Below are positions 4 through 46,528 of a stretch of DNA of 49,911 nucleotides, piece after piece. The position numbers were made by a program, and so were the translations under genes. Numbering within the stretch: position 1 is the stretch's first letter; every line of letters begins with the position of its first letter. The stretch is from the NCBI GenBank assembly GCA_021161645.1, contig JAGHAC010000046.1, positions 1-49,911 on the forward strand, in the 5' to 3' direction. Source of the stretch: a bacterium (lineage in GTDB: Bacteria; Patescibacteriota; Minisyncoccia; Minisyncoccales; PEYH01). Under the pieces are notes generated by a model, which ran no database searches, was not told where the DNA came from, and worked only from the letters and a program-made list of their open reading frames with translations.

Positions 4-768
4 ATGTATAGCTCTTACCATCCCAAGATGAGTCCTAGAAAATATCGCTTCAAATTGAATAATCAGATATTTATTGTTTTTTCTCTATTAGTATTGGGAG
101 TTTTTAGTTTTTATGCTCAAGGAGTTTTTGGAGTAATAGATTCTGGAGGGGGAGGGGGAGGCAATGTATCCCTATTTCTTTATATTGAAAATCCTACAAT
201 TTTTGTTGGTAATAGTGTTGCCGGAACTGCTACTGTAAAAATATATGGAGAGAAAGCTCTTTCTTGTAACACCACCGTGAATTTTGGTGAGAGGTCGGGA
301 GATACTAAAAATATGTTAAGCTTTAATTGTGAATACAATCCGCAAGAAAACGCCGGGTCTAAATTCACAGAATGTTCCCAAACTTTTTCTTATCTTTACA
401 AAGATGAGGGTGAATATAAAATTCATATGAAAACTGATTGTGGCACCACATCATATGAGAGATTCCACACTGTTAAAGTAATCGCTCGTCCGACCACGGG
501 TATCTCTGGCATAGAGTCTCCTATTCAAAGCACCACTATTGAGGAATTACTTGAGCGTATAGGAACAATACTACAAAACATTATTATTGCCTTGGGGATT
601 TTTGTATTAATCATAGCCGGCTATTATTTTATGGCTGCTGGGACTAACCCTCGATATGTTTTAAAGGCAAAAAGAATTATAGTTTGGGTATTTGTAGCGC
701 TAGGTATTGCTATACTCGCAAAAGGAATTATCTTTTTTATTACCCATATGTTTTCTTCATCTTCTTAA
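4..768 (+). CDS. Surface protein: signal-anchor, Cys-containing beta-rich (Ig-like) module, C-terminal VirB2/TrbC-like two-helix pilin hairpin
   Basis: The ORF is open to the left window edge, so the true start may lie outside. It has a hydrophobic N-terminus (IFIVFSLLVLGVFSFYAQG), a G6 linker and a ~120 aa beta-rich region with 4 Cys. It ends in a TM-(AAGTNPRYVLKAKR)-TM hairpin resembling the hairpins of the 7818 and 10096 ORFs. Confidence 0.6.
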   Translation: MYSSYHPKMSPRKYRFKLNNQIFIVFSLLVLGVFSFYAQGVFGVIDSGGGGGGNVSLFLYIENPTIFVGNSVAGTATVKIYGEKALSCNTTVNFGERSGDTKNMLSFNCEYNPQENAGSKFTECSQTFSYLYKDEGEYKIHMKTDCGTTSYERFHTVKVIARPTTGISGIESPIQSTTIEELLERIGTILQNIIIALGIFVLIIAGYYFMAAGTNPRYVLKAKRIIVWVFVALGIAILAKGIIFFITHMFSSSS

Positions 769-2982: not shown

Positions 2983-3014
2983 AGGGGCTGCTTTAAAGCG
3001 GCCCCTCTTCTTTT
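2983..3014. terminator. Bidirectional intrinsic terminator between convergent genes
   Basis: Hairpin AGGGGCTGC-tttaaa-GCGGCCCCT (one G-U pair) preceded by AAA and followed by CTTCTTTT. It lies exactly between the stop at 2982 (+) and the stop at 3013 (-). Confidence 0.7.
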
Positions 3015-4155
3015 AGCCCTTATTTTGGGAACTTTGAAGTTTTTGGGCGAGATATTTTACCAAAGGAGTGATTATCTCTGTAAGCTGAGAAATGATAGGC
3101 TCCAGGGCCACAACCCATTGCTTTTGCTCTGCTGCCGTACCAAGTTTTTCCAAAATTAACGCCTGATCAAGAGCTTTTCTTTTCCCCATTCCTGCTTCTC
3201 CGAGAATTTCAGCCGATTGGACTACAGGACGAACCCTCATTGTAGCTTCTTCTAGCGCCCTATAGGTTGCTGCTTCTGCTGCTCTGCGAGCAACAAGTGG
3301 TTCTTGACGTGCTTTTTCTATGTTTTCTGGCAATTCTTGGCCTGTAAATTTTGCCGAAACTATTTTTATGCCCATGTCGGCTGCCTGGCTCTGTATCTGT
3401 TCGAGTTCTTTACATATAGTCTCGTGGATTATCGACACCGTCTTGATTCTTTGTTTCTCTAGTTCAAGTTCATCTAATAGGGGTTGGAGTAATGTTGATT
3501 TCGATGCCCCTAGCTCGATTTCTCTTTTCAAGCTTGCAATCCTTTCTTCCAAATTTCTGATTTTTACTTGGTCGATTCCGGGCGATTCTTTGATTCTTTC
3601 AAGTAAATCCCCCAGAATCATTCCACTATCCACAGCTTCTCTTACAGTGAATGTCTGAACAAAGCGCGGCAACAGACTTTCAAACGCATCTCTCACCCAC
3701 TCCCTCCAAAACTTTACATTGTATATTACCCTTTGGGGATTATCCGGATCTATTGTTATGTACACTATAGGGTATCTAGGAATAACTGAACCATCAACCA
3801 GGTCTAACTCATATGTTTGTTCGGTAAATAATTCGATAGGCTGTATTCGTATGTCCACTCTTTCTCTGACTGTATCTACAAAAGGCAACTTAAAATTCCA
3901 ACCTGGGAAAAACACTCTATGGAACTTTCCAAGACGCTCTATTATCCAGCGTTCCGGCTCTTCTACTATCACAATACAAAACAAATATAAGGCGCCTGTT
4001 ATAAGAAAAATTCCGCCAAGAATAGGCGCTATACCAAAATAGATCCCCTGAACCGCGACGAGAATTCCTAAAATCAATAAAGTGATCCTTGCTATCCCCA
4101 GCCAACGCCTCTGTCTTTCGATGCTAGTTAATTGTTTCTCTTCCTTTTCAGCCAT
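3013..4155 (-). CDS. SPFH/band-7 (stomatin/prohibitin-like) membrane protein with coiled-coil C-terminal extension
   Basis: Two N-terminal TM helices are followed by IIERLGKFHRVFFPGWNFKLPFVDTV, typical of an SPFH domain start. I prefer the ATG at 4155 because GGAGGA lies 7 nt upstream. The longest ORF starts at 4170. Confidence 0.8.
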   Translation of the reverse strand: MAEKEEKQLTSIERQRRWLGIARITLLILGILVAVQGIYFGIAPILGGIFLITGALYLFCIVIVEEPERWIIERLGKFHRVFFPGWNFKLPFVDTVRERVDIRIQPIELFTEQTYELDLVDGSVIPRYPIVYITIDPDNPQRVIYNVKFWREWVRDAFESLLPRFVQTFTVREAVDSGMILGDLLERIKESPGIDQVKIRNLEERIASLKREIELGASKSTLLQPLLDELELEKQRIKTVSIIHETICKELEQIQSQAADMGIKIVSAKFTGQELPENIEKARQEPLVARRAAEAATYRALEEATMRVRPVVQSAEILGEAGMGKRKALDQALILEKLGTAAEQKQWVVALEPIISQLTEIITPLVKYLAQKLQSSQNKG

Positions 4156-4251
4156 TTTTATTCCTCCCATTTACTTTTTGAAGGTTCTTCTTACTAATAA
4201 AGTATACCATAATTAAGTCTCTCTTGTCAAACCTTACTTATTGTCTTTGTT

Positions 4252-4301: not shown

Positions 4302-4616
4302 ATGGAGCTATCATCTCAAACATATTGGAAAGCATATCAAAAACTTCCCCCTGTGCTTAAGGAAATGATTTTTTCGCCAGATACAGCAGAGGCCATTTGG
4401 GGTATAGCAAAAATTTGTGAGATAGACCGCACTGCCACCTTGGCGAAAATTATAGGAGATGTGCTCTCTGGCTTCCTTCCTCCCGAAAAATTTAAAGAAG
4501 CTGCTCAAAAGCAATTGGGCCTAGACGAGGAAAAAGCAAAAAAGCTTGAAATATATGTTAACCATTACATTTTTGATTTGGTAAGAGACGAACTTAATCA
4601 ACTATACGCTGAATAA
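4302..4616 (+). CDS. Hypothetical small soluble helical protein (first gene of the T4SS-like string)
   Basis: 104 aa ORF with no TM segment and no motif I recognise. Its stop lies 2 nt before the next start. Confidence 0.6.
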   Translation: MELSSQTYWKAYQKLPPVLKEMIFSPDTAEAIWGIAKICEIDRTATLAKIIGDVLSGFLPPEKFKEAAQKQLGLDEEKAKKLEIYVNHYIFDLVRDELNQLYAE

Positions 4617-4618
4617 AT

Positions 4619-5035
4619 ATGGAGTATCCTCTTCCTCAATTTTTGGAAATCAAACCAAAGGTCGCCGGGCCCCTTACCCTACGCCAATTATTATATTTTG
4701 CCGGCGCCCTAATTTTCCTTTTATATTTCTACTTTACTAAATCCCCGGGGGTTTTTCTTCTGATAGCTATACCTGTTATTGGGGCAACCTTTATTTTGGC
4801 GTTTGTAAAAGTAAAAGGTTATCCCATTCCTACGCTAATCCTCCGAGCTATCGGCTACTCTATCAAAGAAAAAGTTTATGTTTGGAGAAAAATCTCTACG
4901 CCCACGCCAACTCTTCCAAGAATCGGGGTTGGAAAACCAATTAAAAAAGAAACAAACAAGGTAATTCCTAAAATAGGCCCTTCAAAAAGCAAACTAAAGG
5001 AATTATCTAAATTAGTTGAAATTCATCCAAGATAA
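4619..5035 (+). CDS. PrgI/VirB3-like small two-TM membrane protein
   Basis: 138 aa with two adjacent TM helices (LLYFAGALIFLLYFYF, VFLLIAIPVIGATFILAFV). It sits immediately upstream of the VirB4 genes, the usual VirB3/PrgI position. Confidence 0.5.
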   Translation: MEYPLPQFLEIKPKVAGPLTLRQLLYFAGALIFLLYFYFTKSPGVFLLIAIPVIGATFILAFVKVKGYPIPTLILRAIGYSIKEKVYVWRKISTPTPTLPRIGVGKPIKKETNKVIPKIGPSKSKLKELSKLVEIHPR

Positions 5036-5037
5036 AT

Positions 5038-5679
5038 ATGCCTTTTTTTTCTACAGGAAGCGCCCAAGTGCTTCTTCCGATTAAACAAATTCGCGATGGA
5101 ATTATCATAATGCGAGACAATAGTCTGCGGGGAATATTAATGGTTTCTTCCATTAATTTTGAACTTAGGTCTTATGAAGAGCAGGAAGCTATTATCTTTC
5201 AATTTCAAAATTTCTTGAACTCCTTAGATTTTTCCTGTCAAATATTAGTCAATTCTCGCAAAATTAACATTACCGGCTACCTTGACCTTCTCAAAAGAGC
5301 AGAAGAAACACAAACTAATTCTCTTTTGAAGCAACAGATTATTGAATATAGAAAATTTATTGATCAATTAGTCGCGGGTGGTTCAATAATGAATAAAAAT
5401 TTCTATTTAATTATTCCTTTCTTTTTGGGTGAGAAAAAGAAAACCGATATATTTCGCCTCAAAACAATCCCTCGTCTTACCGAAGAACTCTATCAGCAAT
5501 ACAGGAGACATCTTTATCAAAGAATGGAATTTTTGGCCTTAGGATTAAGAAGATGTGCCCTTTGGGCAATGCCTTTGAAAACCGAAGAAATTATAGAACT
5601 TTTGTGGAGTTATTATCATCCCAAAGAAGCACAGGTTGGATATTATCCTGAGATCCCTCCTGAACTAATTATTGGTTAA
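5038..5679 (+). CDS. VirB4-family N-terminal domain encoded as a separate polypeptide
   Basis: 213 aa. The stretch LPIKQIRDGIIIMRDNSLRGILMVSSINFELRSYEEQEAIIFQFQNFLNSLDF has the pattern I associate with the extreme N-terminus of Gram-positive-type VirB4/TrsE/Orf16 ATPases. The TAA stop at 5677-5679 lies 2 nt before the next ATG, which is in a different frame. Confidence 0.6.
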   Translation: MPFFSTGSAQVLLPIKQIRDGIIIMRDNSLRGILMVSSINFELRSYEEQEAIIFQFQNFLNSLDFSCQILVNSRKINITGYLDLLKRAEETQTNSLLKQQIIEYRKFIDQLVAGGSIMNKNFYLIIPFFLGEKKKTDIFRLKTIPRLTEELYQQYRRHLYQRMEFLALGLRRCALWAMPLKTEEIIELLWSYYHPKEAQVGYYPEIPPELIIG

Positions 5680-5681
5680 TT

Positions 5682-7457
5682 ATGTCTTTCTCTTTTCTCA
5701 AAAACATTATTCCCTCCCGTCCTCAACCTCAAGCAATGACTCTGCTGGATTTTATTGCTCCGCCCGCAATAAAGGTAGGCTCAAACTACATTCAAATAGG
5801 CGAAAAACTTGCTCGTTCATATTTCATCTTTTCTTTTCCTCGATATTTAACCACCGGATGGCTTTCTCCGTTAATTAATCTTGATGTCCCTCTTGATATA
5901 TCTATTTTTCTTCATCCAATAGACACGGGTTTAGTTTTAAAAAAACTTAGAAAGAAAGTAACTCAGATTCAGTCGGAAATTATGGAAAAAGAAGAGAAAG
6001 GATTGATTAGAGATCCTGTACTAGAAACGGCTTATAGAGACGCCGAAGTTTTAAGAGATCGCTTACAAACCGCCCAAGAAAGAATGTTTGATGTAGGCAT
6101 TTACATAAATGTTTATGCTGATTCTGAAAAAGAACTGGAGAAGACCGAGGCTACCATCCGAGCTATTCTTGAATCTAAGCTTGTATATATCAAACCCGCC
6201 CTATACCAACAAGAAAAGGGACTAATTTCGTCGTCACCATATGCCTTAGACCAACTGAATGTGCACACACCGATGAATACCAGCCCTCTCTCTACTCTTT
6301 TCCCTTTTGTTTCCTTTGATTTAAGCTCTAATGAGGGAATTTTATATGGCATTAACCAACACAATAACTCATTAATTTTATTTGATAGATTCAGCCTGGA
6401 AAACGCCAATATGGTTGTTTTTGGTAAATCGGGCGGAGGAAAATCATACGCGGTAAAATTAGAGATTTTGAGATATCTTATGCTAGGCGTTGATGTAATT
6501 GTTATTGATCCGGAAAACGAATATAAATTTTTGTGTGATGCAGTTGGTGGAGGTTTTTATAACATTTCTTTAAAATCGCCAAACCACATTAATCCCTTTG
6601 ATTTACCCGAACCTTTAGAAGACGAAACCCCTGAAGAAGTTCTGAGGTCAAATATTATAAACCTTGTAGGGCTTTTAAGGTTAATGCTTGGGGGTTTAAC
6701 GCCCGAAGAAGATTCTATTATAGAGCAAGCAATAACGGAAACCTACGCTGCGAGAGATATAACTGAGAACACTGATCCTAAATTATGGCCTGAACGACTT
6801 CCTCTTCTTTCTGACTTAGAGTCGGTTCTAGAAACGATGGAGGGAGCAGAATCTCTTGTGCAAAGATTAAGAAAGTTTACTAAAGGGGTCTACTCTGGAT
6901 TCTTCAACTACCCTACAAATATAAAAATGGAGAATAATATGGTGGTTTTCGGAATAAAAAACCTTGAACCGGAATTAAGACCGATGGCGATGTATATTAT
7001 TATGCGTTATATATGGAATACTATCAAAGGAGAGTTAAAGAAAAGAATGCTTGTAATTGATGAGGCTTGGTGGCTCATGCAAAACGAAGATAGCGCCTCT
7101 TTTCTGTTTGGAATAGTAAAGCGAGGAAGAAAGTACTGGCTGGGAACTACCACCATCACTCAAGACGTAAATGACTTTATGAAATCAGAATATGGACAGC
7201 CTATTATCTCAAACTCTTCTCTTCAATTATTAATGAAGCAATCTCCGGCAACAATTGCTGTAGTCCAAAAAACTTTTAACCTCACAGATAACGAAAAGGA
7301 TCTGCTTTTAGAGGCTCCTGTAGGAGAGGGAATCTTTTTTGCCGGCGAAAAACATGTTGCTATAAGGGTAGTTTCCTCTTATACAGAACACCAAATTATT
7401 ACTACTTCTCCTGAAGAGCTGGCAAAAATAAAAGAATTAAAAAAGATTAATCAATGA
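5682..7457 (+). CDS. virB4: VirB4-class type IV secretion ATPase (middle domain plus ATPase domain)
   Basis: Walker A VVFGKSGGGKSY, Walker B RMLVIDEAWWLM and TTITQD are present. The N-terminal part (YFIFSFPRYLTTGWLSPLINLDVPLDISIFLHP) is typical of the VirB4/TraE middle region. Confidence 0.85.
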   Translation: MSFSFLKNIIPSRPQPQAMTLLDFIAPPAIKVGSNYIQIGEKLARSYFIFSFPRYLTTGWLSPLINLDVPLDISIFLHPIDTGLVLKKLRKKVTQIQSEIMEKEEKGLIRDPVLETAYRDAEVLRDRLQTAQERMFDVGIYINVYADSEKELEKTEATIRAILESKLVYIKPALYQQEKGLISSSPYALDQLNVHTPMNTSPLSTLFPFVSFDLSSNEGILYGINQHNNSLILFDRFSLENANMVVFGKSGGGKSYAVKLEILRYLMLGVDVIVIDPENEYKFLCDAVGGGFYNISLKSPNHINPFDLPEPLEDETPEEVLRSNIINLVGLLRLMLGGLTPEEDSIIEQAITETYAARDITENTDPKLWPERLPLLSDLESVLETMEGAESLVQRLRKFTKGVYSGFFNYPTNIKMENNMVVFGIKNLEPELRPMAMYIIMRYIWNTIKGELKKRMLVIDEAWWLMQNEDSASFLFGIVKRGRKYWLGTTTITQDVNDFMKSEYGQPIISNSSLQLLMKQSPATIAVVQKTFNLTDNEKDLLLEAPVGEGIFFAGEKHVAIRVVSSYTEHQIITTSPEELAKIKELKKINQ

Positions 7458-7855
7458 TCCCAGAACCGGAAACGCTTTTAGATTTTCTGGTTGCTATAAT
7501 TTTAGACGCTATAGGAGCGCTCTGTCTTATCATTGATTTAACTGGGCTGGGCACAGTTTTTGGCGAAGCGCTTTCGTTTGTCCCCGATATTATTGGCTTT
7601 TTTTATTTTGGGACAGAGCTACTCTTTAAGACTGTTTTGTCAAACACAATGAGTGATATCTCTTCTGTTCCTACCACTGTCTTAGAAGGAATATCTAACA
7701 AAAACACATCCAGGAAGATTGTTAAGACAACTTTAAAAAGAGTAGCTTCTAGATTTGCTTTGTTTTCTATCTTAGAATTTATTCCTGTCGTGGGAAGTTA
7801 TTTTTTCTGGACTCATTATGTTATCTCAAAATCCAAAATGGATCTTAATTCTTAA
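7454..7855 (+). CDS. Small multi-TM membrane protein, unknown function
   Basis: 133 aa with an ATGA overlap onto the VirB4 stop. It has hydrophobic helices at both ends. Confidence 0.55.
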   Translation: MIPEPETLLDFLVAIILDAIGALCLIIDLTGLGTVFGEALSFVPDIIGFFYFGTELLFKTVLSNTMSDISSVPTTVLEGISNKNTSRKIVKTTLKRVASRFALFSILEFIPVVGSYFFWTHYVISKSKMDLNS

Positions 7856-10094
7856 CTGCTTGATGGCAATGACTTTGTGCCTAATTGCTGACTCTTTAGT
7901 TTGGGCTACGGATTTAGAGGTAAAATATCCTCGAATTCCCGGAATTACTCCGCCAGAAAGTGTTCAAGTCCCTCTTTCTTTTTACTTAAATTATATTTTT
8001 GAACTCGCTGTTGGCCTTGCAGGTTTTTTGGTATTTTTTCTTCTTATTAGGGCGGGAACTATATATGTTTTTAATTCTTATAACCCTGGCAAAGTAAAAG
8101 AGGCAAAAGAAATTCTTACCTTTGCTTTTGTAGGTTTTGGTATTATCCTTTCTTCTTATCTAATTTTGGCATTAATCAATCCTCAATTAGTTAAATTTCA
8201 TCTCCCCTCTCTAACACCTGCAAAACTAGAACCTATAGAAGAAATTGGCGAAATTCAGGCTCCCTCAATTCCTTTAACCGAAATTCCTGTGGGGACTTTA
8301 ATTACCTCAGAGACCGGGGTTTCTTCTTTTATTTTAACTCCTGGAACAGATCCCCCTTATAATCACCCAAATTATGATAAATATTTTCCTGGAGTAGTAA
8401 AATATCCAACAGATTATCAGGGGGCAATAAATGGAAGAAGGGTTAAAAGAATACATGAAGTTACCCAACACAGCGTACCTATGTCTGGCATAATGGTATT
8501 TCTGGTAGAAAAACTAAAAGGGCTTACTGATAAGTGTGTATGTAGAAATTGTGAATGTATTGCTAAGCAAAGCTGCCGGGCCGGAGAGTGCCAATTAGGT
8601 ATATGTACCTCAGAAACAAGAGCGAGAATAACTTGTGCTCAACTTCAGATTGTTTTCTTTACAGGCGCATATACTGCTTGGCTGGACGGCAACAATATTT
8701 TAGAAAGATATGTAAAAGCCAACCAGGGGCTATTAGTTAAAATCGAGAACTGCGACCCCGAGGGTACAGCAAAAATAATGCAAGCGATAAAGAAAGCAAT
8801 CGAAATTGAAAATAAAGGAACATGGACTCCTAAAACCGACCCGCCAGAGAGAGACGTCCAGCAAAACATCTGGCACCTAGAGAAAATTATTGAGTATTTA
8901 AATAGCGTGAAACTTACCTTAACGCCTGAGATTCCCGGTAACCCCTGCTCCTATGTTTATAGCAACGCTCAAGTTGGAGGAGAAATAGCAAAAGATGTTG
9001 TGCCTATGATCGAAGAAGTCAATGTTATAGAAGACCCTGCTACATTTTACTGTTCTCTCTCTCCATTAAAAATTTTGAGTGATTTGGAATTGCTCCAAAT
9101 TCTCTCTCAAGAATTGGGAAGTTCTGAAGCCCCAAGTACCTGTGACGATATAGTAGAAATCCCTGTAGGAAAAGCGATAGACGAAGCTCTAAAACTTGCC
9201 AATGATATGTTGAGAGAATTAAAAAATATTTGGAAGCAAGGACACCAACAAATTGAATGGGCTTTACAAATGAATGATATTGCTGATAAAATAAAAACAG
9301 AGAACAACTGTTCTGTTTATTGCATTCATAAAGTAAGATGCCTCTTCACTAACCCTGAAACTCACCGTTGTGAGGTCTGTGAGTGTACATGTAAAGAATC
9401 ACCTACCCTTACAGTGCTTCGTCAAAAACTTCAAGATCTCTTAGAGGCCATTAAACAAGCTCATGATAGCATTTTTATGTCTTTTAAAAGAATCAATTCT
9501 AAAGACCCTCTTACAGGACAACGTGTGCCTATTGGTATAGATCGCTGCTGCGTAAAACCATTAGGAGATTGCTTTTTGGAAAACGAGTTCGAAAAGCGGG
9601 ATTACACTCTTAAAGAAAAGCTTCTCGAAGTTCAAAAGCTGCTTGACCGCGCTCGATTATTTAGTACATACGAATTACTGCTTAAACAGCTTGCTAATCT
9701 TAAATCATCGGGTCGCCTATCCGGTCCAGAATATGCTAGATTACCAGACCCAATTAAAGAGTTTAATAAAGTTTTAAGTGCAGAATATGCGAAATACAGA
9801 TATGACCTTACAAACTGTGATGTTCTAACCAAACAGCACATTGAATCAGAAGAAACGGTAGGCCAACTTAATATTTTAGAGAGTTGTTATGTGGCAAAAA
9901 CCATTTATCATTTAAATCCTGAATATTGTCGCTCCAACCCACCTTATAATTGTGATTATTTCAATCCTATTTCCCCTCCAAAACTGAGACAAGGGTTGCT
10001 CTGCTATTGTAACCAACCCCCGGATTTTTCTGAAATTGCTTCTGATTTTTTCTGCTGTGTAAGCGCATCTCATATGTTACAAAAAGAGCGGTAA
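7818..10094 (+). CDS. Giant pilin-fusion: signal peptide, VirB2/TrbC-like two-helix hairpin, ~620 aa cysteine-rich ectodomain
   Basis: Signal peptide ...LIADSLVWA, then LEVKYPRIPG, then helix1 (YLNYIFELAVGLAGFLVFFLLI), loop NSYNPGKVKEAKE and helix2 ending LINPQL. About 30 Cys follow in CxC/CxxC clusters (CVCRNCECIAKQSC, CEVCECTC, DRCCV, FFCCV). An alternative start at 7863 is possible. Confidence 0.7.
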   Translation: MLSQNPKWILILNCLMAMTLCLIADSLVWATDLEVKYPRIPGITPPESVQVPLSFYLNYIFELAVGLAGFLVFFLLIRAGTIYVFNSYNPGKVKEAKEILTFAFVGFGIILSSYLILALINPQLVKFHLPSLTPAKLEPIEEIGEIQAPSIPLTEIPVGTLITSETGVSSFILTPGTDPPYNHPNYDKYFPGVVKYPTDYQGAINGRRVKRIHEVTQHSVPMSGIMVFLVEKLKGLTDKCVCRNCECIAKQSCRAGECQLGICTSETRARITCAQLQIVFFTGAYTAWLDGNNILERYVKANQGLLVKIENCDPEGTAKIMQAIKKAIEIENKGTWTPKTDPPERDVQQNIWHLEKIIEYLNSVKLTLTPEIPGNPCSYVYSNAQVGGEIAKDVVPMIEEVNVIEDPATFYCSLSPLKILSDLELLQILSQELGSSEAPSTCDDIVEIPVGKAIDEALKLANDMLRELKNIWKQGHQQIEWALQMNDIADKIKTENNCSVYCIHKVRCLFTNPETHRCEVCECTCKESPTLTVLRQKLQDLLEAIKQAHDSIFMSFKRINSKDPLTGQRVPIGIDRCCVKPLGDCFLENEFEKRDYTLKEKLLEVQKLLDRARLFSTYELLLKQLANLKSSGRLSGPEYARLPDPIKEFNKVLSAEYAKYRYDLTNCDVLTKQHIESEETVGQLNILESCYVAKTIYHLNPEYCRSNPPYNCDYFNPISPPKLRQGLLCYCNQPPDFSEIASDFFCCVSASHMLQKER

Positions 10095-10095
10095 T

Positions 10096-11691
10096 ATGAA
10101 AAAAAGATTAATATTCTATTATTCTCTAACAGTTGTATTGACTATCATTGCAAGTACCACCTTAGTGAGGGCTGATTCTGGTTTAGAATTAGAAGTAAAA
10201 TACCCGAACCTGTCTCAAACAATATCTCCGCCCCAATCAGCCAAGGGGTACCTTGTTGATTATATTAAATATATTTTTGAAGTGGCAATTTTCCTCTCCG
10301 GAATCGTGGCTTTTGTGGCTTTTCTCAGGGGAGGGTTTTCCTATCTTACTTCAACAGGCAATCCCTCTAAAATGCAAGATGCTAGAGACCAAATTCTTGC
10401 CGGTTTTCTTGGTTTAATTATTATCTTAGGTTCTTTTATCCTTTTGAATACCATCAACCCGCAATTAACGGAAATTAAACCTCCTGGAATTACTGGAGTA
10501 GGCCGAGGCATTATAGTCTATTCCGACGAAAACTGTGGAGATGGCGCTAATGCCCTTCCCGGTGTTCTAAAACCTTTACCTGAGGGAGTTATTTACGAAA
10601 GAGTAGAGTGGACCAAGGCTCTCTCTTCCACATCAAGAGCCCAGAACGGAACAAGAAAAGGAATGGCTATCAGATCTTTATATTCCTTCAATAGCGGAGA
10701 AGAATTAGTTCGTATAGAATTTTATCAAAACAAAGAGTGCCAAGGTCAGCCAATATCTGTTTTTACCCCCCCGAATGCAGACAAATGTTATAGCGGGACT
10801 GATATAGCCGACCAAGGGAAAATAGAGGATGTCCAATGTATTAAACTCATATGGCATATTCCCGGCGTCTGGCTTTTTACTGAAGAAGACGGAAATCCTG
10901 AATCGCCTACAGGTCCTTTTACAATAATACAAATGGATGCTCCCTCGCTACCGGAGAAGGTAGCTGGCAAAGTAAAATCTATCGCTTTAGTTGATGATGA
11001 ATTAAAACATCAAAAATATGGGGTTGTTCTCCATGAAAAATCTGGGCCTAGATACAAGGTTAAAGGTTGGGCACATCCTTATTTTCCTAAACCACAACTC
11101 TCGACAACCCGTTATAAAACAACAAACAAAAATGCTCATTCTGCCACAGTGTTTATTGTAGATGAAAACACTCCTTCTAAATGGGTGAGGCTTTGCGAGC
11201 ACGACGATTGCCAGCCGGCATCAGTTAATGAAGGAGGAGAGGTTGTTTCTAAGCCGGCTGAGAGATATTATATGTGGCCGGGGGAAAACAGACCTCCTGT
11301 CGGTGGCAACACTACACCATTAAAAGAGATTGAAAAAGTACCTCCTGAATATGCCAGAGGGGCTCTTCTCCACGAAGACGCTGATGAGTGGTGGAAGGGA
11401 GGAGATAAAGTAGCTATTTGTGAAAGTGTAAGTGGTATTAATTGGATCGGCAGAATTACCCAGTTGACAGGTAAATGTTATCGAGGAGTCTCCGCCATCG
11501 AACTCGAAGAGGGAAGTAGTTATATCTTAATCCTTTGGGCTACAGGGAAAACAAAACCACAATGGGTGGAAGGTGCGCGAGGAAATGCTCCGGCTCTTAT
11601 TATAGACAAAACCACTCGAAAACTGATTGACTTCGGATTTAATGAACAGTTGGGCATGTTTTTGGTTATAAAGGTTAAATCTTCTTTTTAA
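10096..11691 (+). CDS. Pilin-fusion paralog: signal peptide, VirB2/TrbC-like hairpin, ~400 aa ectodomain with 8 Cys
   Basis: Signal peptide ...STTLVRA, then LELEVKYPNLS, YIKYIFEVAIFLSGIVAFVAFL, loop STGNPSKMQDARD, and helix2 ending TINPQL. The N-terminal ~130 aa are clearly paralogous to the 7818 ORF. Confidence 0.7.
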   Translation: MKKRLIFYYSLTVVLTIIASTTLVRADSGLELEVKYPNLSQTISPPQSAKGYLVDYIKYIFEVAIFLSGIVAFVAFLRGGFSYLTSTGNPSKMQDARDQILAGFLGLIIILGSFILLNTINPQLTEIKPPGITGVGRGIIVYSDENCGDGANALPGVLKPLPEGVIYERVEWTKALSSTSRAQNGTRKGMAIRSLYSFNSGEELVRIEFYQNKECQGQPISVFTPPNADKCYSGTDIADQGKIEDVQCIKLIWHIPGVWLFTEEDGNPESPTGPFTIIQMDAPSLPEKVAGKVKSIALVDDELKHQKYGVVLHEKSGPRYKVKGWAHPYFPKPQLSTTRYKTTNKNAHSATVFIVDENTPSKWVRLCEHDDCQPASVNEGGEVVSKPAERYYMWPGENRPPVGGNTTPLKEIEKVPPEYARGALLHEDADEWWKGGDKVAICESVSGINWIGRITQLTGKCYRGVSAIELEEGSSYILILWATGKTKPQWVEGARGNAPALIIDKTTRKLIDFGFNEQLGMFLVIKVKSSF

Positions 11692-11692
11692 C

Positions 11693-12163
11693 CTAGATCT
11701 TTTTGGGTTTTATTATTACTCTTCTTTCTGGTTCTTCCCCTACGCTTTCTGTGGCAACATCATTTCTTTTAGCTAATTCTAAATGAATGATTCTTCTTTG
11801 ATAAGCTGGCATTGGTTCCAGCTCTTTCTTTTTTTTGGAAAGAGTCACTTCGTCAGCCACAGAATTTGCTATCTCTCGAAGATAAGTATACTTCTTTTCT
11901 TTATATTCGTTAATGTCTAGATCAACAAAAAAATCTCCTTGGTTTTTCTTTTTAAGAATCTTTGAAAGAAGTTTTTGAATTGTATTAAGAACTATTCCAC
12001 CCTGCCCAATTAAAATCTTAGGTTCTTCCACTTGAATTCTGATGTGTAAAACCCCTTCTTCTAAAAAAACCTCTACTTTCTGAAGATCAAAACCCATTTT
12101 CTCAAAAAACTGACAAACAAGAGATTTTGTATTTTTAAAATTGACAGCGTCCTCCATATTCAA
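11693..12163 (-). CDS. jag: Jag/SpoIIIJ-associated KH + R3H RNA-binding protein
   Basis: KH GxxG motif (ILIGQGGIVLNTIQ) and R3H motif (YQRRIIHLEL). It sits downstream of yidC, as is typical. Confidence 0.85.
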   Translation of the reverse strand: MNMEDAVNFKNTKSLVCQFFEKMGFDLQKVEVFLEEGVLHIRIQVEEPKILIGQGGIVLNTIQKLLSKILKKKNQGDFFVDLDINEYKEKKYTYLREIANSVADEVTLSKKKKELEPMPAYQRRIIHLELAKRNDVATESVGEEPERRVIIKPKKI

Positions 12164-12858
12164 TTTTTAATTCTTCTTTTAACAATTTCTTGTTGAAGAA
12201 TAGCAAATAATCCACTTACAAGCAAGTAAAGAGCGACGGCTGAAGGTACTTTTAGGAGAACTATCACAATAAAAGCCGACAAAAAATAATTCATCATTAA
12301 CTGCTGATGTTTTTGCTGCTTATCTTTTGAAGACGATCTTACACTCATCCATTTTGTCTGAAGATACTGAGAAACGCCCACAAGTACTGCCAATAAAATT
12401 GACGGTTTAGCTAAATCTATGTTTAAAAAGATGGTATTTATTGTCTCTGGCTTGTGAACAAAACTGTAAAGATAAGTAAAATTTTCTGGGTTCAAGCCTC
12501 TCAAAAACAATCTATAAAGAGCGATAAGCACCGGAAATTGAATAAGAAGCAGCCAAAATCCTGAAAAGGGGTTAAACTTTTCTTTTTTATAAATCTCCAT
12601 CAGAGCTTTTGCCTGTTTTTCTCTATCGTACTTATGCTTCTCTTGGATTTCCTTAATTTTAGGTTGAATTTTTTGAAGGGCTATCTGCGATTTAATCACC
12701 TTTTCTTGAAAAGGATACAAAGCAGCTCTAATAAGTAGGGTTAAAATAATTATTGCCAAACCAAAACTATGACCAGGCAAATAAGTAGTTAAAAGAATTA
12801 AAAGATTAAAAAGCGGCTGGTAGAAGATTATATAAAAAATTTTTACAATACTATTCAT
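12160..12858 (-). CDS. yidC: YidC/Oxa1-family membrane protein insertase (short form)
   Basis: 232 aa polytopic protein in the conserved rnpA-yidC-jag order, with a 4 nt overlap to jag and an 8 nt overlap with rnpA. Confidence 0.85.
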   Translation of the reverse strand: MNSIVKIFYIIFYQPLFNLLILLTTYLPGHSFGLAIIILTLLIRAALYPFQEKVIKSQIALQKIQPKIKEIQEKHKYDREKQAKALMEIYKKEKFNPFSGFWLLLIQFPVLIALYRLFLRGLNPENFTYLYSFVHKPETINTIFLNIDLAKPSILLAVLVGVSQYLQTKWMSVRSSSKDKQQKHQQLMMNYFLSAFIVIVLLKVPSAVALYLLVSGLFAILQQEIVKRRIKN

Positions 12859-13201
12859 TTTGTTTGATAATTCCTGCTTTTTGAAAGATTGTTAGTATAA
12901 TTTCCTGTAGTTCCCAAAAATCATACTTTTCTGCTCCGGGTAAAGCGATTACCACAACATCATAACCCTGCTTAATGTGTAGCAGAATACTTCTTATCGC
13001 TTCTCTCAATTTCCTTTTTAATCTGTTTCTTGTCACTGCTCTGTTTGAAACTTTTCTAGAAACCACAAACCCAAATCGCAAACCAGAATCTTCTTTTTCA
13101 AGAATCTTAATAAAAATTTCTTTTTCTCTATATCCTTTTCCTTGACGAAAAACTAAGTTGAAATCCTTTTGTTTTTTGAGTCGGTTTTTGAAAGGTAACA
13201 T
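12851..13201 (-). CDS. rnpA: Ribonuclease P protein component
   Basis: 116 aa basic protein with KKQKDFNLVFRQGK near the N-terminus. It starts 1 nt after the rpmH stop. Confidence 0.85.
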   Translation of the reverse strand: MLPFKNRLKKQKDFNLVFRQGKGYREKEIFIKILEKEDSGLRFGFVVSRKVSNRAVTRNRLKRKLREAIRSILLHIKQGYDVVVIALPGAEKYDFWELQEIILTIFQKAGIIKQNE

Positions 13202-13336
13202 TTAAGGAATAAGTTTTTTTCTGCCCTTTTTCCGCCTTCTCTTTAACACTCTCTTGCCTCCTTTAGTTTTTGTTCTTTTTAGAAACCCATGTGTTTTCTT
13301 TTTCTTTCTTTTTTTACCTTTGTTTGTAATGCTCAT
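13202..13336 (-). CDS. rpmH: 50S ribosomal protein L34 (below the ORF-track length cutoff)
   Basis: Manual translation of the minus strand gives MSITNKGKKRKKKKTHGFLKRTKTKGGKRVLKRRRKKGRKKLIP*. This contains the L34 core THGF..R.KTKGG..VL.RRR.KGRK.L. Confidence 0.9.
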   Translation of the reverse strand: MSITNKGKKRKKKKTHGFLKRTKTKGGKRVLKRRRKKGRKKLIP

Positions 13337-13425
13337 ATGCTCAAATAAATTAAAACTAATAATTAGATTATATCATAATGACTTTAGTGGTCAAATCAAA
13401 AAGTTTTTCTCTAAAGATTTACAGA

Positions 13426-13445
13426 TTATCCACAACTTATTCACA
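13426..13445 (+). promoter_or_regulatory. Two tandem DnaA boxes upstream of dnaA
   Basis: TTATCCACA (13426-13434, perfect consensus) and TTATTCACA (13437-13445, one mismatch). Confidence 0.7.
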
Positions 13446-13467
13446 TAGGTGTTGTTTTTTCTTGATT

Positions 13468-13496
13468 TTGCGTTGTTTTCTGATAATCTCTATAAT
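13468..13496 (+). promoter_or_regulatory. Candidate dnaA promoter
   Basis: TTGCGT, a 17 nt spacer, then TATAAT (13491-13496), 29 nt upstream of the dnaA ATG. Confidence 0.5.
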
Positions 13497-13524
13497 ATAA
13501 GAGGGCAAATTAATACTGAACTAT

Positions 13525-14871
13525 ATGACAAAAGAAGAGCTCTGGCAATCTGTTCTTGCCCAAATCCAACTCAATGTTTCTCCAGCAAATTTTGCTACCT
13601 GGTTTAAAAATACAAAAATTGTAGGAGTAAACGGAAGCTCTGTAATTATAGGCACCCCAAATGCCTTTTCCAGAGAGTGGCTTGAAAAAAAATATGGCAA
13701 AACCATATTAAAAATTTTAAGAAACCTAGATACCCAAATTAAAAAAATAGAGTTCCAGGTAATTTCTCATAAGCCCCTTAAAAACTTTGCTCAAAAATCT
13801 GTAGAATATCCTGACCAACTTAAATTTGAAGAATTTTATTTAGACAAAAAAACTAACCTTAATCCAAAATATACTTTTGAGAACTTTGTTGTAGGTCCGT
13901 TTAACGAACTTCCTCACGCTGCTGCTTGGGCTGTAAGCGAAAATCCGGGATCTGTATATAATCCTCTTTTTATTTACGGAGGCGTAGGACTAGGAAAAAC
14001 TCATCTTATTCAAGCGCTTGGTAACAAAGTATTAGAAAACTTCCCAAACAAAAAAGTACGCTATGTATCTTCTGAAAGATTTACTTCCGAGATTATTAAC
14101 TCTATCAAAAATCAAACAATAGACCGCTTCAAAAGATCCTATCATCAAATCGATCTTTTAATCATAGACGACATTCAATTTCTCTCAGGCAAAGAAAAAA
14201 CCCAAGAAGAATTCTTTCATATTTTTAATTCACTCTATGAGGCGAATAAACAGATTATTCTCTCTTCTGATCGTCCACCAAAGGCAATTTCCGCTCTAGA
14301 AGAAAGATTAAGATCAAGATTTGAGGGAGGAATGATTGCAGATATCAGCATTCCGGATTTTGAGTCGCGAGTCGCTATTTTGAAACAAAAAATGCAGGAA
14401 AAAAACATCTTTTTTGACGACCAAATCTTAGAATATATTGCCGAGAATATCCAAAGCAATATAAGAGAACTTGAGGGAGCGCTTAACAGACTCATTATTT
14501 ATCAAAAAATCAATAACCAAACCGTAGATCTGGAAACTGCTAAAAAGTTGCTTAAAAGAATCATAAAACCTCAAGCTAAAAGGGTGAGCTTTCAAAAAGT
14601 AATAGATATTGTAGCTGAATTTTACAACCTCAAATCCAAAGATCTCTTTCAGAAAACAAGAAAACAAGAAATTGTAAGACCAAGACAAATAGCAATGTAT
14701 TTATTAAGAGAAGAAGTTAAACTCGCCTTTCCAACTATTGGGAAAAAGTTTGGAGGAAAAGACCATACCACTGCCATCTACGCCTACGAAAAAATCGCTA
14801 AAGAAATTGAAGAGAATGAAAGTTTCTCAGAGGAAATAAACATCATCAAAGAAAGAATTTATACCTTATAA
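13525..14871 (+). CDS. dnaA: Chromosomal replication initiator DnaA
   Basis: Walker A GGVGLGKTHL, Walker B LLIIDDIQFL, and the C-terminal DNA-binding signature RPRQIAMYLLRE...GGKDHTTAIYAYEKI. Confidence 0.95.
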   Translation: MTKEELWQSVLAQIQLNVSPANFATWFKNTKIVGVNGSSVIIGTPNAFSREWLEKKYGKTILKILRNLDTQIKKIEFQVISHKPLKNFAQKSVEYPDQLKFEEFYLDKKTNLNPKYTFENFVVGPFNELPHAAAWAVSENPGSVYNPLFIYGGVGLGKTHLIQALGNKVLENFPNKKVRYVSSERFTSEIINSIKNQTIDRFKRSYHQIDLLIIDDIQFLSGKEKTQEEFFHIFNSLYEANKQIILSSDRPPKAISALEERLRSRFEGGMIADISIPDFESRVAILKQKMQEKNIFFDDQILEYIAENIQSNIRELEGALNRLIIYQKINNQTVDLETAKKLLKRIIKPQAKRVSFQKVIDIVAEFYNLKSKDLFQKTRKQEIVRPRQIAMYLLREEVKLAFPTIGKKFGGKDHTTAIYAYEKIAKEIEENESFSEEINIIKERIYTL

Positions 14872-15101
14872 AGTGTTAAAAAGAAGTGGAAAAATTAAGA
14901 AGAATGTCTGAAGAAAACGTGAAGAAATTTTGTCTAATATTTTTTCATATTTTCTTCCACAATAATACCCAATTTTTTCCTGAAATTTCCACAAAGTTTT
15001 CCTACCTAATTTAATTGATTCTATCTTATTTTTACACAAAAACAATCAGAAAACATAAAATCTAATAGTAGTAATAATCTAATTAAAATTAAATTAAAAT
15101 T
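14872..15101. promoter_or_regulatory. Candidate oriC segment (dnaA-dnaN intergenic region)
   Basis: 230 bp non-coding region with three TTCCACA-core box-like motifs: GTGGAAAA at 14886-14893 (inverted), TTCTTCCACA at 14952-14961 and ATTTCCACA at 14985-14993. A nearly pure A/T stretch at ~15040-15100 could serve as an unwinding element. Confidence 0.55.
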
Positions 15102-16235
15102 ATGGCTATAGAAGTTTTGCGAGAAAATTTAAAAAAAGGTCTTCAGATTGTAGAAAGAATCACAGGAAAAAATTTAGTTCTTCCAATTTTAAACAATGTT
15201 TATTTAAAAACAGAAAAAAATTCGTTAAGGCTTGCGACTACGGATTTAGAAACAGCAATCTATCATTGGATATTAGCAAAGACGGATAAAGAGCAAGAAA
15301 TTACAGTGCCTGTAAAATTATTTTCGAATCTTTTATCTTTTTTGTCAGATCAAAAAATCAATCTAGAAATAAAAGATAAAATTTTAATATTAAGCGGAGA
15401 AAACTATAAAACAGAAATAAAAGGATTAGATCCAAAAGATTTTCCTATTATTCCTAAAATTGAAAAGAATGAGTGGATCGAGATTGATCCTTTATCGTTT
15501 ACAACAAGTATTTCTCAGGTAATTGATTTTTGTAGCACAACTCAAGTGAGGCCAGAACTTACTGGTGTTTATTTTTTCTTTTCGGAAAAAAATGTAAAGA
15601 TTGTTGCCACAGATAGTTTTAGGTTGGCGGAGAAAACCCTTAATTATCAAACTTCTCAAGGAAATCTTAAAGAAGAGAAGGCTTTTATTCTTCCAAGAAG
15701 TGCTGCTAGGGAAATTACAGGAATTTTCAATGAATCGGGGCAAAAAATTAAGATATTTTTTACTTCCAATCAGGTTTTGGTAGAGAATTATTTCTTTGAA
15801 TCAGAAACGCCACAGACCCAATTAATTTCGAGGTTAATAGAAGGAGAGTTTCCTAATTATCAAGATATAATTCCCAAGGAGTCGAAGACAGAAATTTTAG
15901 CAGATAAGTCTCAATTTTTGAATTATCTAAAGGCGGCAAGCATTTTTGCTGGAAGGGGTAATGAAGTAAATTTGAAGGTTGATGCTAAAGATAAGAGAAT
16001 AGAGATTTTAACCGAGAATACGGATGTGGGTTCTACTCAATTTACTCTTCCGGCAAAGATTAATGGAGAAAAAACGAAGATATGCTTCAATTACAAGTTT
16101 TTACTTGAAGGAATTTCTAAAATTAAAGGAGATGAAATATATATAGGATTAAACGGTGAAGATGGTCCGGGGCTCATTAAATCACAAGAAGATTCTAGTT
16201 TTCTCTATATCCTAATGCCGATTAAACCTACATAA
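15102..16235 (+). CDS. dnaN: DNA polymerase III beta sliding clamp
   Basis: 377 aa directly after dnaA. The N-terminal pattern (L..GL..V.RI....LVLPILNNVYL) and the length fit DnaN. Confidence 0.9.
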   Translation: MAIEVLRENLKKGLQIVERITGKNLVLPILNNVYLKTEKNSLRLATTDLETAIYHWILAKTDKEQEITVPVKLFSNLLSFLSDQKINLEIKDKILILSGENYKTEIKGLDPKDFPIIPKIEKNEWIEIDPLSFTTSISQVIDFCSTTQVRPELTGVYFFFSEKNVKIVATDSFRLAEKTLNYQTSQGNLKEEKAFILPRSAAREITGIFNESGQKIKIFFTSNQVLVENYFFESETPQTQLISRLIEGEFPNYQDIIPKESKTEILADKSQFLNYLKAASIFAGRGNEVNLKVDAKDKRIEILTENTDVGSTQFTLPAKINGEKTKICFNYKFLLEGISKIKGDEIYIGLNGEDGPGLIKSQEDSSFLYILMPIKPT

Positions 16236-21672: not shown

Positions 21673-22971
21673 TTATCTTTCCATGGCTACTCTTTTTACC
21701 TCTTCTATGGTGGTAATTTTCTCTATAACCTTTATCAAACCATCTTTATACATAGAAACCATTCCTCTTTTCTCCGCCAGTTTTCTCATCTCGGAGACAG
21801 ATGGTTTTTTAAGAATCAGGTCTTCCATTTCAGAATCTACTAAAAAAGCTTCAAAAATGCCCACTCTTCCTTTATAACCAGTAAAGTTGCAGTATTTGCA
21901 ACCTTTTGCTTCCATAACTTCTAAATCCTGAGAAATTTTAGGAATTTTAATATCTTTGGGTAAGTTAGAGAATTCTGATTTTAACATTTGGAATTCTTCA
22001 GGACTAATTTTTCTAGGGAGAGCACATTTTGGACAAATTTTTCTTACCAATCTTTGGGCAATAACCATATTAATTGCCGGTGCAATATTAATAGGATTTG
22101 CTCCCAAAGATGCCAGTCTTGGAATAGCACCCGGAGCATCGTTTGTATGAAGAGTAGAAAAAACAAGATGTCCGGTAAGAGCAGCCTGTAGAGCAATTTC
22201 AGCGGTTTCTTTATCTCTGATTTCTCCTACTAGAATAACATCCGGATCTTGACGAACAATGGACCTAAGGCCATTTGCAAAATCGTATCCTTTTTCTGGG
22301 TGAACTTCTGTTTGCGAGATTCCTTCTAATCTGTACTCAATTGGATCTTCGATAGTAATAATTTTAATCTCAGGCTTTTGAAGGAAGCGCAGGAAAGCAT
22401 ACAAAGTAGTAGTTTTTCCTGAACCAGTAGGACCAGTCACAATAATCATTCCGTTTGGTTTCTGGATTTCATTTTTAAATAATTCTAGAAGATCTTTTCT
22501 TAACCCCAATTCTTCAATGTTTTTTAAACTTTGAGGGTTGAGAATTCTCATTACGATAGATTCTCCATAATCTGCAGGCAGGACAGAAGTTCTAATTTCT
22601 ATTTCTAATTGAGGTAGAGCAACGGAAAAACTTCCATCTTGGGCCCTATCGTGAATGTTTAGTTTTAGTCCCGCCAACAATTTTATTCGCGAAAGCAAAA
22701 GATGGTATGTTTCTACTCGAAAAGAGAAAACATCTTGTAGCATTCCGTCTAACCGGATTCTTAAACGAACACTTTCTTCCTGTGGTTCTAGATGAATGTC
22801 TGAAGCAAATAAATGAATTGATCCAGTCAAGATCAAGCCGAGAAGATCACTAATATCTTTATCAAGAAATTTTTCTATTTCTTTGGCAAAATCAGAAACG
22901 CTTTCGATTTCTTTTTGAGCCAGTTTCTGAATTTCTGGAGGTATAACAATTTTGTCTGTTATTGTTACCAT
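21673..22971 (-). CDS. Short GspE/PilB-family secretion ATPase (lacks the long N-terminal domains)
   Basis: Walker A GPTGSGKTTT, Asp box EDPIEY, Walker B DPDVILVGEIRD, His box LTGHLVFSTLHTN and the tetracysteine CPKC...CKYC. I prefer the ATG at 22971; the ORF track uses the TTG at 22980. Confidence 0.85.
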   Translation of the reverse strand: MVTITDKIVIPPEIQKLAQKEIESVSDFAKEIEKFLDKDISDLLGLILTGSIHLFASDIHLEPQEESVRLRIRLDGMLQDVFSFRVETYHLLLSRIKLLAGLKLNIHDRAQDGSFSVALPQLEIEIRTSVLPADYGESIVMRILNPQSLKNIEELGLRKDLLELFKNEIQKPNGMIIVTGPTGSGKTTTLYAFLRFLQKPEIKIITIEDPIEYRLEGISQTEVHPEKGYDFANGLRSIVRQDPDVILVGEIRDKETAEIALQAALTGHLVFSTLHTNDAPGAIPRLASLGANPINIAPAINMVIAQRLVRKICPKCALPRKISPEEFQMLKSEFSNLPKDIKIPKISQDLEVMEAKGCKYCNFTGYKGRVGIFEAFLVDSEMEDLILKKPSVSEMRKLAEKRGMVSMYKDGLIKVIEKITTIEEVKRVAMER

Positions 22972-22976
22972 AGAAT

Positions 22977-34619: not shown

Positions 34620-34621
34620 TT

Positions 34622-46324: not shown

Positions 46325-46396
46325 GGCCAGGTAGCCAAGTGGTAAGGCAAGGGTCTGCAAAACCCTTATACGCGGGTTCGAGTCCCGCCCTGGCCT
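46325..46396 (+). tRNA. tRNA-Cys (anticodon GCA)
   Basis: Acceptor GGCCAGG/CCTGGCC, anticodon stem AGGGT/ACCCT with loop CTGCAAA, T arm GCGGG-TTCGAGT-CCCGC, discriminator T. Confidence 0.9.
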
Positions 46397-46526: not shown

Positions 46527-46528
46527 CA

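Follow-up and report, generated by a model that had tools for sequence, protein, structure and literature searches.

VirB2-like hairpin proteins with large ectodomains in an apparently replaceable cassette of a Patescibacteria type IV secretion locus

In a 49,911-nucleotide (nt) stretch of a Patescibacteria genome (contig JAGHAC010000046.1; hereafter, the window), two consecutive open reading frames, ORF1 and ORF2, each join a helical hairpin resembling that of VirB2, a pilin of type IV secretion systems (T4SSs), to a long C-terminal domain. ORF1 (7818-10094, forward strand) encodes 758 amino acids (aa) arranged as a signal peptide (residues 1-30), the motif LEVKYP, a hairpin (53-120), the motif INPQL, a linker (129-148), and an ectodomain (149-758). 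ORF2 (10096-11691, forward strand) encodes 531 aa and repeats this N-terminal layout with a signal peptide, LEVKYP, a hairpin at residues 53-120, and INPQL, followed by an ectodomain at residues 136-531. The hairpin modules themselves correspond to positions 7908-8195 for ORF1 (residues 31-126) and 10177-10473 for ORF2 (residues 28-126), both on the forward strand. Hydropathy analysis located hydrophobic segments in both proteins at residues ~6-30 (the signal peptide), 55-86, and 98-122, with the two helices joined by an NP[GS]K loop, and AlphaFold2 placed helices at residues 53-85 and 90-120 in both. For ORF1, the block means of the predicted local distance difference test (pLDDT) were 64-89 across the hairpin module and 79-89 over residues 61-120. 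Both proteins thus carry the signal peptide, two hydrophobic helices, and short polar loop expected of a pilin; they are not small, essentially hairpin-only proteins of ~70-130 aa when mature, given C-terminal domains of 620 aa (ORF1) and 400 aa (ORF2).

In a pairwise alignment, ORF1 (residues 9-133) and ORF2 (residues 11-133) were 37% identical (E 5e-22), and no alignment was returned downstream of residue ~133. The two ectodomains are unrelated to each other. ORF1 contains 32 Cys residues, 30 of them C-terminal to the hairpin and including the clusters CVCRNCECIAKQSC and CEVCECTC, and ORF2 contains eight, all within the ectodomain. An original prediction made from the DNA letters had described two paralogs with a common N terminus and dissimilar ectodomains that extend far beyond the length of canonical pilins; its coordinates, motifs, and Cys counts were accurate in every detail checked, and the alignment and protein lengths agree with that description. 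The same prediction had named an assembly error as a possible refutation. Fusion of a pilin to a downstream gene by misassembly or faulty gene calling was rejected, as the ORFs are uninterrupted and 15 independent contigs show this architecture with the genes in the same order. Full-length homologs with 28-82% identity are encoded in more than 50 independent contigs from metagenomes or metagenome-assembled genomes (MAGs), and AlphaFold2 modeled the ORF1 ectodomain confidently (predicted template modeling score [pTM], 0.73). We therefore regard the chance that the long ORFs reflect a fusion error as negligible.

Family membership of the hairpins was assessed with profile hidden Markov models (HMMs), principally the Pfam T4SS_pilin family (PF18895; curated cut-off, 26.6 bits). 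PF18895 matched residues 57-117 of ORF1 at 23.3 bits (E 6.8e-5) and residues 59-113 of ORF2 at 20.5 bits (E 5e-4), both just under the cut-off. A third hairpin protein is encoded at 4-768 (forward strand). This 254-aa protein consists of an N-terminal signal anchor, a ~130-aa ectodomain with four Cys, and a C-terminal hairpin (residues 176-251), and residues 176-243 scored 33 bits to PF18895 and 19.9 bits to TrbC/VirB2 (PF04956). The suggestion that residues ~175-254 of ORF 4-768 hold the same module was thereby upheld, and this ORF also matched our custom hairpin HMM (E 2e-24), while its ortholog in contig L002 is called T4SS_pilin. All three proteins scored ~21-22 bits to the NCBIfam Mbov_0395 pilin-like family. 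Several orthologs of ORF1 and ORF2 score higher to PF18895 than the window proteins do: the ORF1-type protein of contig L013 reached 30.4 bits, its ORF2-type neighbor 26.5 bits (just below the cut-off), and the relative P0143 36.9 bits. Three sets of related proteins contained PF18895 matches at E ≤ 0.01 in 84 of 86, 41 of 41, and 32 of 35 cases; in the first set, whose members share this hairpin, the 84 also match at E ≤ 1e-3. PF04956 did not match ORF1 or ORF2 at E ≤ 1; its sub-threshold matches were confined to ORF 4-768 (19.9 bits) and the related protein P0071 (21.9 bits).

To place the hairpin among its relatives, a hairpin-only profile was searched against 1.84 billion proteins at E ≤ 1e-3, which yielded 52,693 cluster representatives. 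Among the best 150 of these matches, 86 proteins have just one hairpin, at the N terminus; their median length is 490 aa, and all but five exceed 200 aa. Among close relatives of this hairpin type, no form is more frequent than a hairpin followed by a long ectodomain, and the arrangement is not a local oddity; the variable-ectodomain architectures that the original prediction proposed to look for are widespread. Across the 86 proteins, whose ectodomains are unrelated, the hairpin positions Y37, P38, Y59, and P122 are invariant. About fourteen hairpin positions are at least 90% conserved, including S86, G88, and P90 of the loop, and L33, E34, G69, G80, G106, S113, L117, I120, and L124 also reach this level; the flanking LExxYP and INPxL motifs are among the conserved positions. 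Such constraint is far above that of a generic signal-anchor pair, and the competing view that the two helices form an ordinary anchor unrelated to VirB2 is not borne out. The PF18895 matches and the conserved positions together assign the ORF1 and ORF2 hairpins, at the level of sequence, to the VirB2-like T4SS_pilin family, and conservation on this scale suggests a functional module as opposed to a generic anchor.

The same module is also found as short pilins of 133-180 aa and in fusions to other annotated domains. Pfam domains joined to the hairpin in relatives include Crystall, Inhibitor_I36, NlpC/P60, Peptidase_C39/C39_2, C70, and Mx1. In P0042 (878 aa), a Peptidase_M74 domain is appended to an ORF1-type ectodomain, and P0071 (329 aa) carries VanY. 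Fusions of the hairpin to wall hydrolases and peptidases may explain why VirB1 has been reported missing from most T4SS loci of Patescibacteria. A separate architecture was seen in 63 of the best 150 hairpin matches (including P0073-P0100), in which two to eight VirB2-like hairpins are concatenated in one polypeptide, here termed polypilins. The repetition argues for side-by-side packing of hairpins, and no description of concatenated conjugative-pilin modules was found in the literature searched. Read-through under an alternative genetic code was rejected as the source of P0074 (L016:1777-3435), whose DNA reads as an uninterrupted ORF with six hairpins under genetic code 11 and which lies amid five further PF18895 genes.

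The ectodomain of ORF1 defines a conserved family. More than 50 full-length relatives of 739-1064 aa were retrieved at 26-35% identity, several of which are named "pilin" by NCBI. An alignment of 35 of these sequences contains 36 invariant columns, of which 17 are Cys and several are charged residues, and the wider superfamily shares the motifs E[IL]P[IV]G, CxC, GDPC..R, DPATFYC, IP[IL]G..D.A, and a C-terminal FFCC. The AlphaFold2 model (mean pLDDT, 78.9; pTM, 0.73) shows a disordered or low-confidence linker of ~20 residues after the hairpin (129-148) and a mostly helical ectodomain with long helices at residues 206-238, 265-290, 450-494, and 529-560 plus small β elements. The hairpin was the sole Pfam domain in the 35 family members, and the ectodomain was never found without a hairpin among 50 relatives. 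A family sequence profile had no match in the PDB, and Foldseek returned no meaningful match to the model (best E, 0.43 in the PDB and 0.82 in BFVD). Based on the model, the ORF1 ectodomain would be a disulfide- or metal-stabilized helical module with a fold lacking a known relative.

For ORF2, about 50 relatives were retrieved. In the AlphaFold2 model, the ectodomain is all-β, with residues 140-255 being the best part. Within a 41-member ectodomain family, Pfam annotated Crystall in 10 members, Inhibitor_I36 in seven, and Crystall_3 in four, with a best Crystall E-value of 4.4e-9. The PF00030 cut-off of 25 bits was passed by P0143 (25.3 bits) and P0134 (26.7 bits), and the P0143 match maps to a region homologous to residues ~475-530 of ORF2, in the C-terminal domain. 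ORF2 combines Greek-key-like YxxxxCxG and SxxV strings with an all-β model, which recalls microbial β/γ-crystallin-domain proteins (PF00030, PF08964; Inhibitor_I36), but ORF2 itself has no significant Crystall match in the Pfam scan. The family profile reached only 3hzb in the PDB, weakly (E 0.61), and Foldseek found nothing below E 0.2 in the PDB for the ORF2 model, with the β-crystallin 1blb at E 0.44. The structure searches that had been suggested for the two ectodomains hence gave a weak β-crystallin hint for ORF2 and no relative for ORF1. We consider β/γ-crystallin-like Greek-key domains probable for the ORF2 ectodomain.

ORF1 and ORF2 are embedded in a recognizable T4SS locus. Following the hairpin gene at 4-768, the forward strand encodes a 736-aa VirB6/TrbL-like polytopic membrane protein (772-2982) with ~6-7 hydrophobic segments in residues 1-317; its syntenic L002 ortholog carries TrbL_3 (PF19590). 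An SPFH/Band 7 membrane protein is encoded on the reverse strand (3013-4170; PF01145, 60.3 bits). The forward strand continues with a 104-aa protein (4302-4616) that is syntenic in nine loci and has no Pfam or PHROG match, a PrgI/VirB3-like protein (4619-5035; PF12666, 35.6 bits), and a 213-aa protein (5038-5679) resembling TrsD and the VirB4 N-terminal domain. The latter designation draws on weak NCBIfam matches that are far below the curated cut-offs (VirB4_plasma, 32.5 bits against 590; TrsD, 24.9 bits against 200), and the L002 ortholog matches TraC-like PF26593. The 591-aa VirB4 ATPase (5682-7457, forward strand) is of the monoderm (CD1110) type (NF045971, 383.7 bits against a cut-off of 325; PF19044, 98.9 bits). 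VirB4 is split in all loci examined, with the N-terminal-like part being a separate gene directly upstream of the ATPase. A small membrane protein of 133 aa, o133 (7454-7855, forward strand; hydrophobic segments 5-40 and 101-119), shares 4 nt with the 3′ end of VirB4 and 38 nt with the beginning of ORF1. Downstream of ORF2 are jag, yidC, and rnpA on the minus strand, followed by dnaA and dnaN; dnaA (13525-14871) was assigned by synteny and by 61-96% identity to genes called DnaA in L001-L003.

The order VirB6-like, PrgI, TrsD, VirB4, o133, ORF1, ORF2, and then jag-yidC-rnpA/dnaA is conserved in the 15 contigs mentioned above. In each locus, a single gene of the ORF1 type and a single gene of the ORF2 type follow VirB4 at a constant position. 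The contigs are labeled Patescibacteria, Saccharibacteria, or Paceibacterota apart from three MAGs, of which one is labeled "Nanoarchaeota" (probably mis-binned) and two only "bacterium." Like pilin genes elsewhere, the hairpin genes are thus encoded with VirB4 (383.7 bits), VirB3 (PrgI, 35.6 bits), and VirB6 (TrbL_3 in the L002 ortholog) homologs, which confirms the placement of these genes in a T4SS locus. PHROG profiles gave no informative match for six locus proteins and no match at all for ORF1 and ORF2; the VirB6-like protein weakly matched phrog_3750, a family of unknown function (E 0.0025). Three hairpin ORFs (4-768, ORF1, and ORF2) and no short pilin were detected in the window. Among the window ORFs scanned, which were part of the total, there was no relaxase or type IV coupling protein, and among the locus genes scanned, we recognized neither a VirB8-, VirB1-, or adhesin-like gene nor a TraF-like peptidase. 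By sequence and gene order, the locus appears to be a chromosomal, monoderm-type (MPF-FATA-like) Patescibacteria T4SS near dnaA. Published Patescibacteria T4SS loci are likewise of the monoderm type, near dnaA, and equipped with pilin arrays, with no relaxase, no detectable adhesins, and mostly no VirB1 (PMC12102498).

Other features of the window include a type IV pilus gene set (21673-22980 on the reverse strand; 32874-35824 and 35836-37170 on the forward strand) that comprises a PilT/PilB-like T2SSE ATPase (435 aa), a PilB with an MshEN domain (581 aa), PilC (T2SSF), and a 444-aa protein with a CarboxypepD_reg/SpaA-like domain. The two type IV pilus ATPase genes account for the inverted repeats I1 and I2 (22114-22461 versus 33813-34160). 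Five tRNA genes (Cys, Leu, Val, Phe, and Gly) are clustered within ~570 nt (46325-46892), and the cumulative GC-skew minimum is at ~20-24 kb, some 8-10 kb from dnaA.

Comparison with close relatives revealed that o133, ORF1, and ORF2 diverge together. Between the window and L013, amino acid identity is 96% for DnaA, 94% for DnaN, 93% for the penicillin-binding protein, 89% for YidC, 87% for Jag, 92% for VirB4, and 79% for TrsD. The L013 ORF1 protein is 48% identical to that of the window in the hairpin and 38% in the ectodomain, and the corresponding values for ORF2 are 57% and 30%; these identities are no higher than those of distant lineages. At the nucleotide level, blastn aligned L013 with the window at 77% over 4618-7457 and 86% over 11702-15476, and nothing was alignable over 7458-11701. 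The breaks in this alignment coincide precisely with the stop codons of VirB4 and jag, which delimit a hypervariable cassette of o133, ORF1, and ORF2 (7458-11701, forward strand). The first of these genes is syntenic in most loci at only 28-49% identity and is undetectable in L013, where a 112-aa ORF takes its place. By comparison, L017 carries the same cassette allele as the window (78% nucleotide identity over 8750-12469), with 89.5% amino acid identity for Jag, 90% for YidC, 77% for ORF2, and 82% for ORF1, the last being a C-terminal fragment of 447 aa because the contig begins inside the gene.

Uniformly fast evolution as the cause of the L013 divergence was rejected, given that the equally related L017 has a 77-82% identical cassette. 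Two equally close relatives, one with the same allele and the other with a deeply different one, point to block replacement. On this sequence evidence, o133, ORF1, and ORF2 behave as an allelic cassette that close relatives swap as a unit, a pattern typical of surface molecules that set partner specificity or are under attack. The region was also considered as the target of a diversity-generating retroelement, and this was rejected: no repeat of at least 30 nt involves 7818-11691, and the divergence spans whole proteins. Other genes of the locus vary to different degrees in L012 and L013 relative to the window, with 42-45% identity for the SPFH protein, 44% for the 104-aa protein, and 61-65% for PrgI, compared with 79-80% for TrsD and 92% for VirB4. 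This suggests that the whole membrane and surface part of the T4SS may evolve or be exchanged rapidly. Outside the T4SS genes, ~600 nt (15476-16071, covering the 3′ part of dnaN and a spacer) are not alignable with L013 amid 83-86% identity.

The closest described counterparts are the pilin arrays of Patescibacteria, which contain 2-11 genes (PMC10633639, PMC12102498, PMC12857230). In Southlakia epibionticum, the VirB2-like pilins SEML1_0014-0019 are short, about 125-185 aa (Table S2, PMC10633639), and T4SS genes including these VirB2-like pilins are essential for epibiotic growth (PMC10633639). The window locus resembles the Southlakia arrays in its PF18895 hairpin family, monoderm-type VirB4, PrgI, VirB6-like protein, location near dnaA, lack of an observed relaxase, and several divergent hairpin genes per locus. 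It differs in that all three hairpin proteins bear extra domains (130, 400, and 620 aa) and two of them are in a replaceable cassette. Large ectodomains on Patescibacteria T4SS pilins are not mentioned in the papers we found on these systems.

Canonical mature pilins (VirB2, TrbC, and TraA) are about 70-100 aa, have no extra domain, and belong to diderm systems. ORF1 and ORF2 share with them a signal peptide, a helix-loop-helix hairpin with both ends predicted to be outside the membrane, and association with VirB4, VirB3, and VirB6 homologs; unlike them, ORF1 and ORF2 have large extra domains and no direct PF04956 match. PilB and PilC of Streptococcus sanguinis are minor subunits that combine a pilin module driving filament incorporation with an adhesive module. 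The likeness to these type IV modular pilins is an analogy of design principle only, as PilB and PilC use a class III signal peptide and a single N-terminal helix, whereas ORF1 and ORF2 have a Sec signal and a helical hairpin. Target contact and wall penetration are served in other T4SSs by surface proteins such as VirB5 tip proteins, PrgB, PrgK, and TcpG, roles that are otherwise unfilled at this locus. No sequence or fold similarity to these four was detected, and VirB5 and PrgB lack a VirB2-like hairpin.

We propose that ORF1 and ORF2 are modular VirB2-like surface proteins that act as minor T4SS subunits, at the tip or base, for host contact; we hold this interpretation to have a slightly better than even chance of being correct. 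The Sec-type signal peptide would direct membrane insertion, and the conserved hairpin (LExxYP, helix 1, a GNP-containing loop, helix 2, and INPxL) would reside in the membrane with its loop cytoplasmic or lumenal, where it may be the module recognized by the VirB4/VirB6/VirB3 machinery. The C-terminal domain of 620 or 400 aa would then be outside the cell. In F- and T-pilus structures, the N and C termini of VirB2-type pilins are both exposed on the filament exterior, and a C-terminal extension is therefore topologically allowed. Given this orientation and a predicted topology with both hairpin ends outside, we infer by analogy that the ectodomains are extracellular, with which the signal peptide, the Cys-rich composition, and the position of all ectodomain Cys after helix 2 agree. 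We hypothesize that the hairpin docks each protein into a T4SS stalk or pilus as a low-copy subunit at the tip or base, not as the repeating shaft, and that the ectodomains are presented at the host-cell contact site. There, ORF2 could contribute a β/γ-crystallin-type binding or structural module and ORF1 a disulfide- or metal-stabilized helical module.

Several observations weigh against this proposal. ORF1 and ORF2 themselves score under the Pfam gathering cut-off for PF18895, and hairpin profiles built from 3 and 10 sequences retrieved no solved VirB2, TraA, or TrbC from the PDB (matches to "Pizza" repeats were spurious). As the hairpin profile reaches no solved conjugative pilin, the case for kinship with canonical VirB2 is built on the Pfam family and on weak matches to TrbC. 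Within the mosaically conserved ORF1 ectodomain, the charged residues R208, R211, E331, K333, R345, D346, and E447 are invariant, which is likewise compatible with an enzyme or a fixed structural component instead of an adhesin. Confidence in the ORF2 model is low (pLDDT, 59.8), and the crystallin assignment of ORF2 derives from relatives and weak matches. The tip location is conjectural, and a pilus has yet to be demonstrated for the T4SS of any member of the Patescibacteria (PMC12857230).

The main rival is a static scaffold, in which the hairpin anchors the proteins beside VirB6, no pilus is made, and the ectodomains form a fixed, wall-spanning outer part of the machine, functionally substituting for VirB8/PrgL, VirB9/10, or VirB1/PrgK. 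The single copy of each type per locus and its constant position after VirB4 would suit such a part, as would the strongly conserved islands of the ORF1 ectodomain. It is kept alive by the invariant charged residues of ORF1 and by the peptidoglycan hydrolase domains on related hairpin proteins, alongside a scan of locus genes that recognized nothing like VirB8, VirB1, or an adhesin and the general scarcity of VirB1 in Patescibacteria (PMC12102498). Yet a fixed core is not expected to be swapped for an allele of 30-38% identity where VirB4 is 92% identical, the loop and flanking motifs are conserved far beyond the needs of a passive anchor, and the module also exists as free short pilins and concatenated repeats. 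We consider the scaffold unlikely, though worth keeping in view.

A homopolymer decorated on every subunit, the arrangement first raised in the original prediction, seems improbable. ORF1, ORF2, or both would polymerize like VirB2, carrying a 400-620-aa domain on each subunit, and homology of the hairpin to pilins, the absence of a short pilin from the window, and the low-confidence ORF1 linker at residues 129-148 speak for it. Pili of this type have about five subunits per ~1.2-1.5-nm rise and a diameter of ~8.5 nm. From these dimensions, we estimate ~7 nm2 of surface per subunit, compared with a footprint of ~20-25 nm2 for a 45-70-kDa domain, which makes a full shaft of ORF1 or ORF2 subunits unlikely. 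Furthermore, the smaller ORF 4-768 is a more plausible main subunit, and because the genome is incomplete, short pilins may be encoded elsewhere. Tip or adhesin subunits, the alternative offered in the same prediction, fit better than a decorated filament since there is one gene of each type per locus and the genes are replaced as a block between close relatives. Slightly less probable still is a precursor that is cleaved near INPxL, releasing a short pilin together with a secreted effector or toxin, or an ectodomain delivered to the host. In canonical TrbC/VirB2 pilins, the C terminus is processed and the chain cyclized, two near-invariant motifs bracket the hairpin whatever follows, and some of the fused peptidase and wall-hydrolase modules could act as effectors. 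INPxL also occurs in short pilins that end ~9 residues later, which argues that the motif is part of the hairpin module and not a dedicated cleavage site; in addition, the scanned locus genes revealed no TraF-like peptidase, and the ORF1 ectodomain is never free-standing among 50 relatives.

A broader extension of the tip or base subunit proposal, which we offer tentatively and judge less likely than not, is that in Patescibacteria the hairpin serves as a general display tag, with the cassette as the host-range determinant of the epibiont. The T4SS would pull tagged proteins out of the membrane and mount them on or at the end of a pilus-like stalk. The cargo would include crystallin adhesin-like modules, the Cys-rich helical module, peptidoglycan hydrolases, and peptidases.

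That VirB2-like genes occur in Patescibacteria T4SS loci is already known, and some of the long proteins carry the database name "pilin." No modular or giant VirB2-like pilins were described in the open-access literature and bioRxiv preprints searched. Specifically, we found no account of many such "pilins" being large modular proteins, of two conserved ectodomain families (one without a detectable relative of known structure), or of a swappable hairpin cassette beside VirB4. A practical consequence concerns PF18895-based tallies of "pilins," which lump short pilins together with giant modular proteins and with proteins that concatenate several hairpins. A large part of bacterial diversity belongs to the Patescibacteria, which live on the surface of host cells, and the only species amenable to genetics cannot grow on its host without the T4SS and its pilin-like genes. 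The proteins reported here supply candidates for host recognition and envelope breaching, and the cassette allele should, as a prediction, correlate with host range. If the hairpin is indeed a display tag, it would supply the adhesin and wall-breaching functions that have been reported missing from these essential T4SSs.

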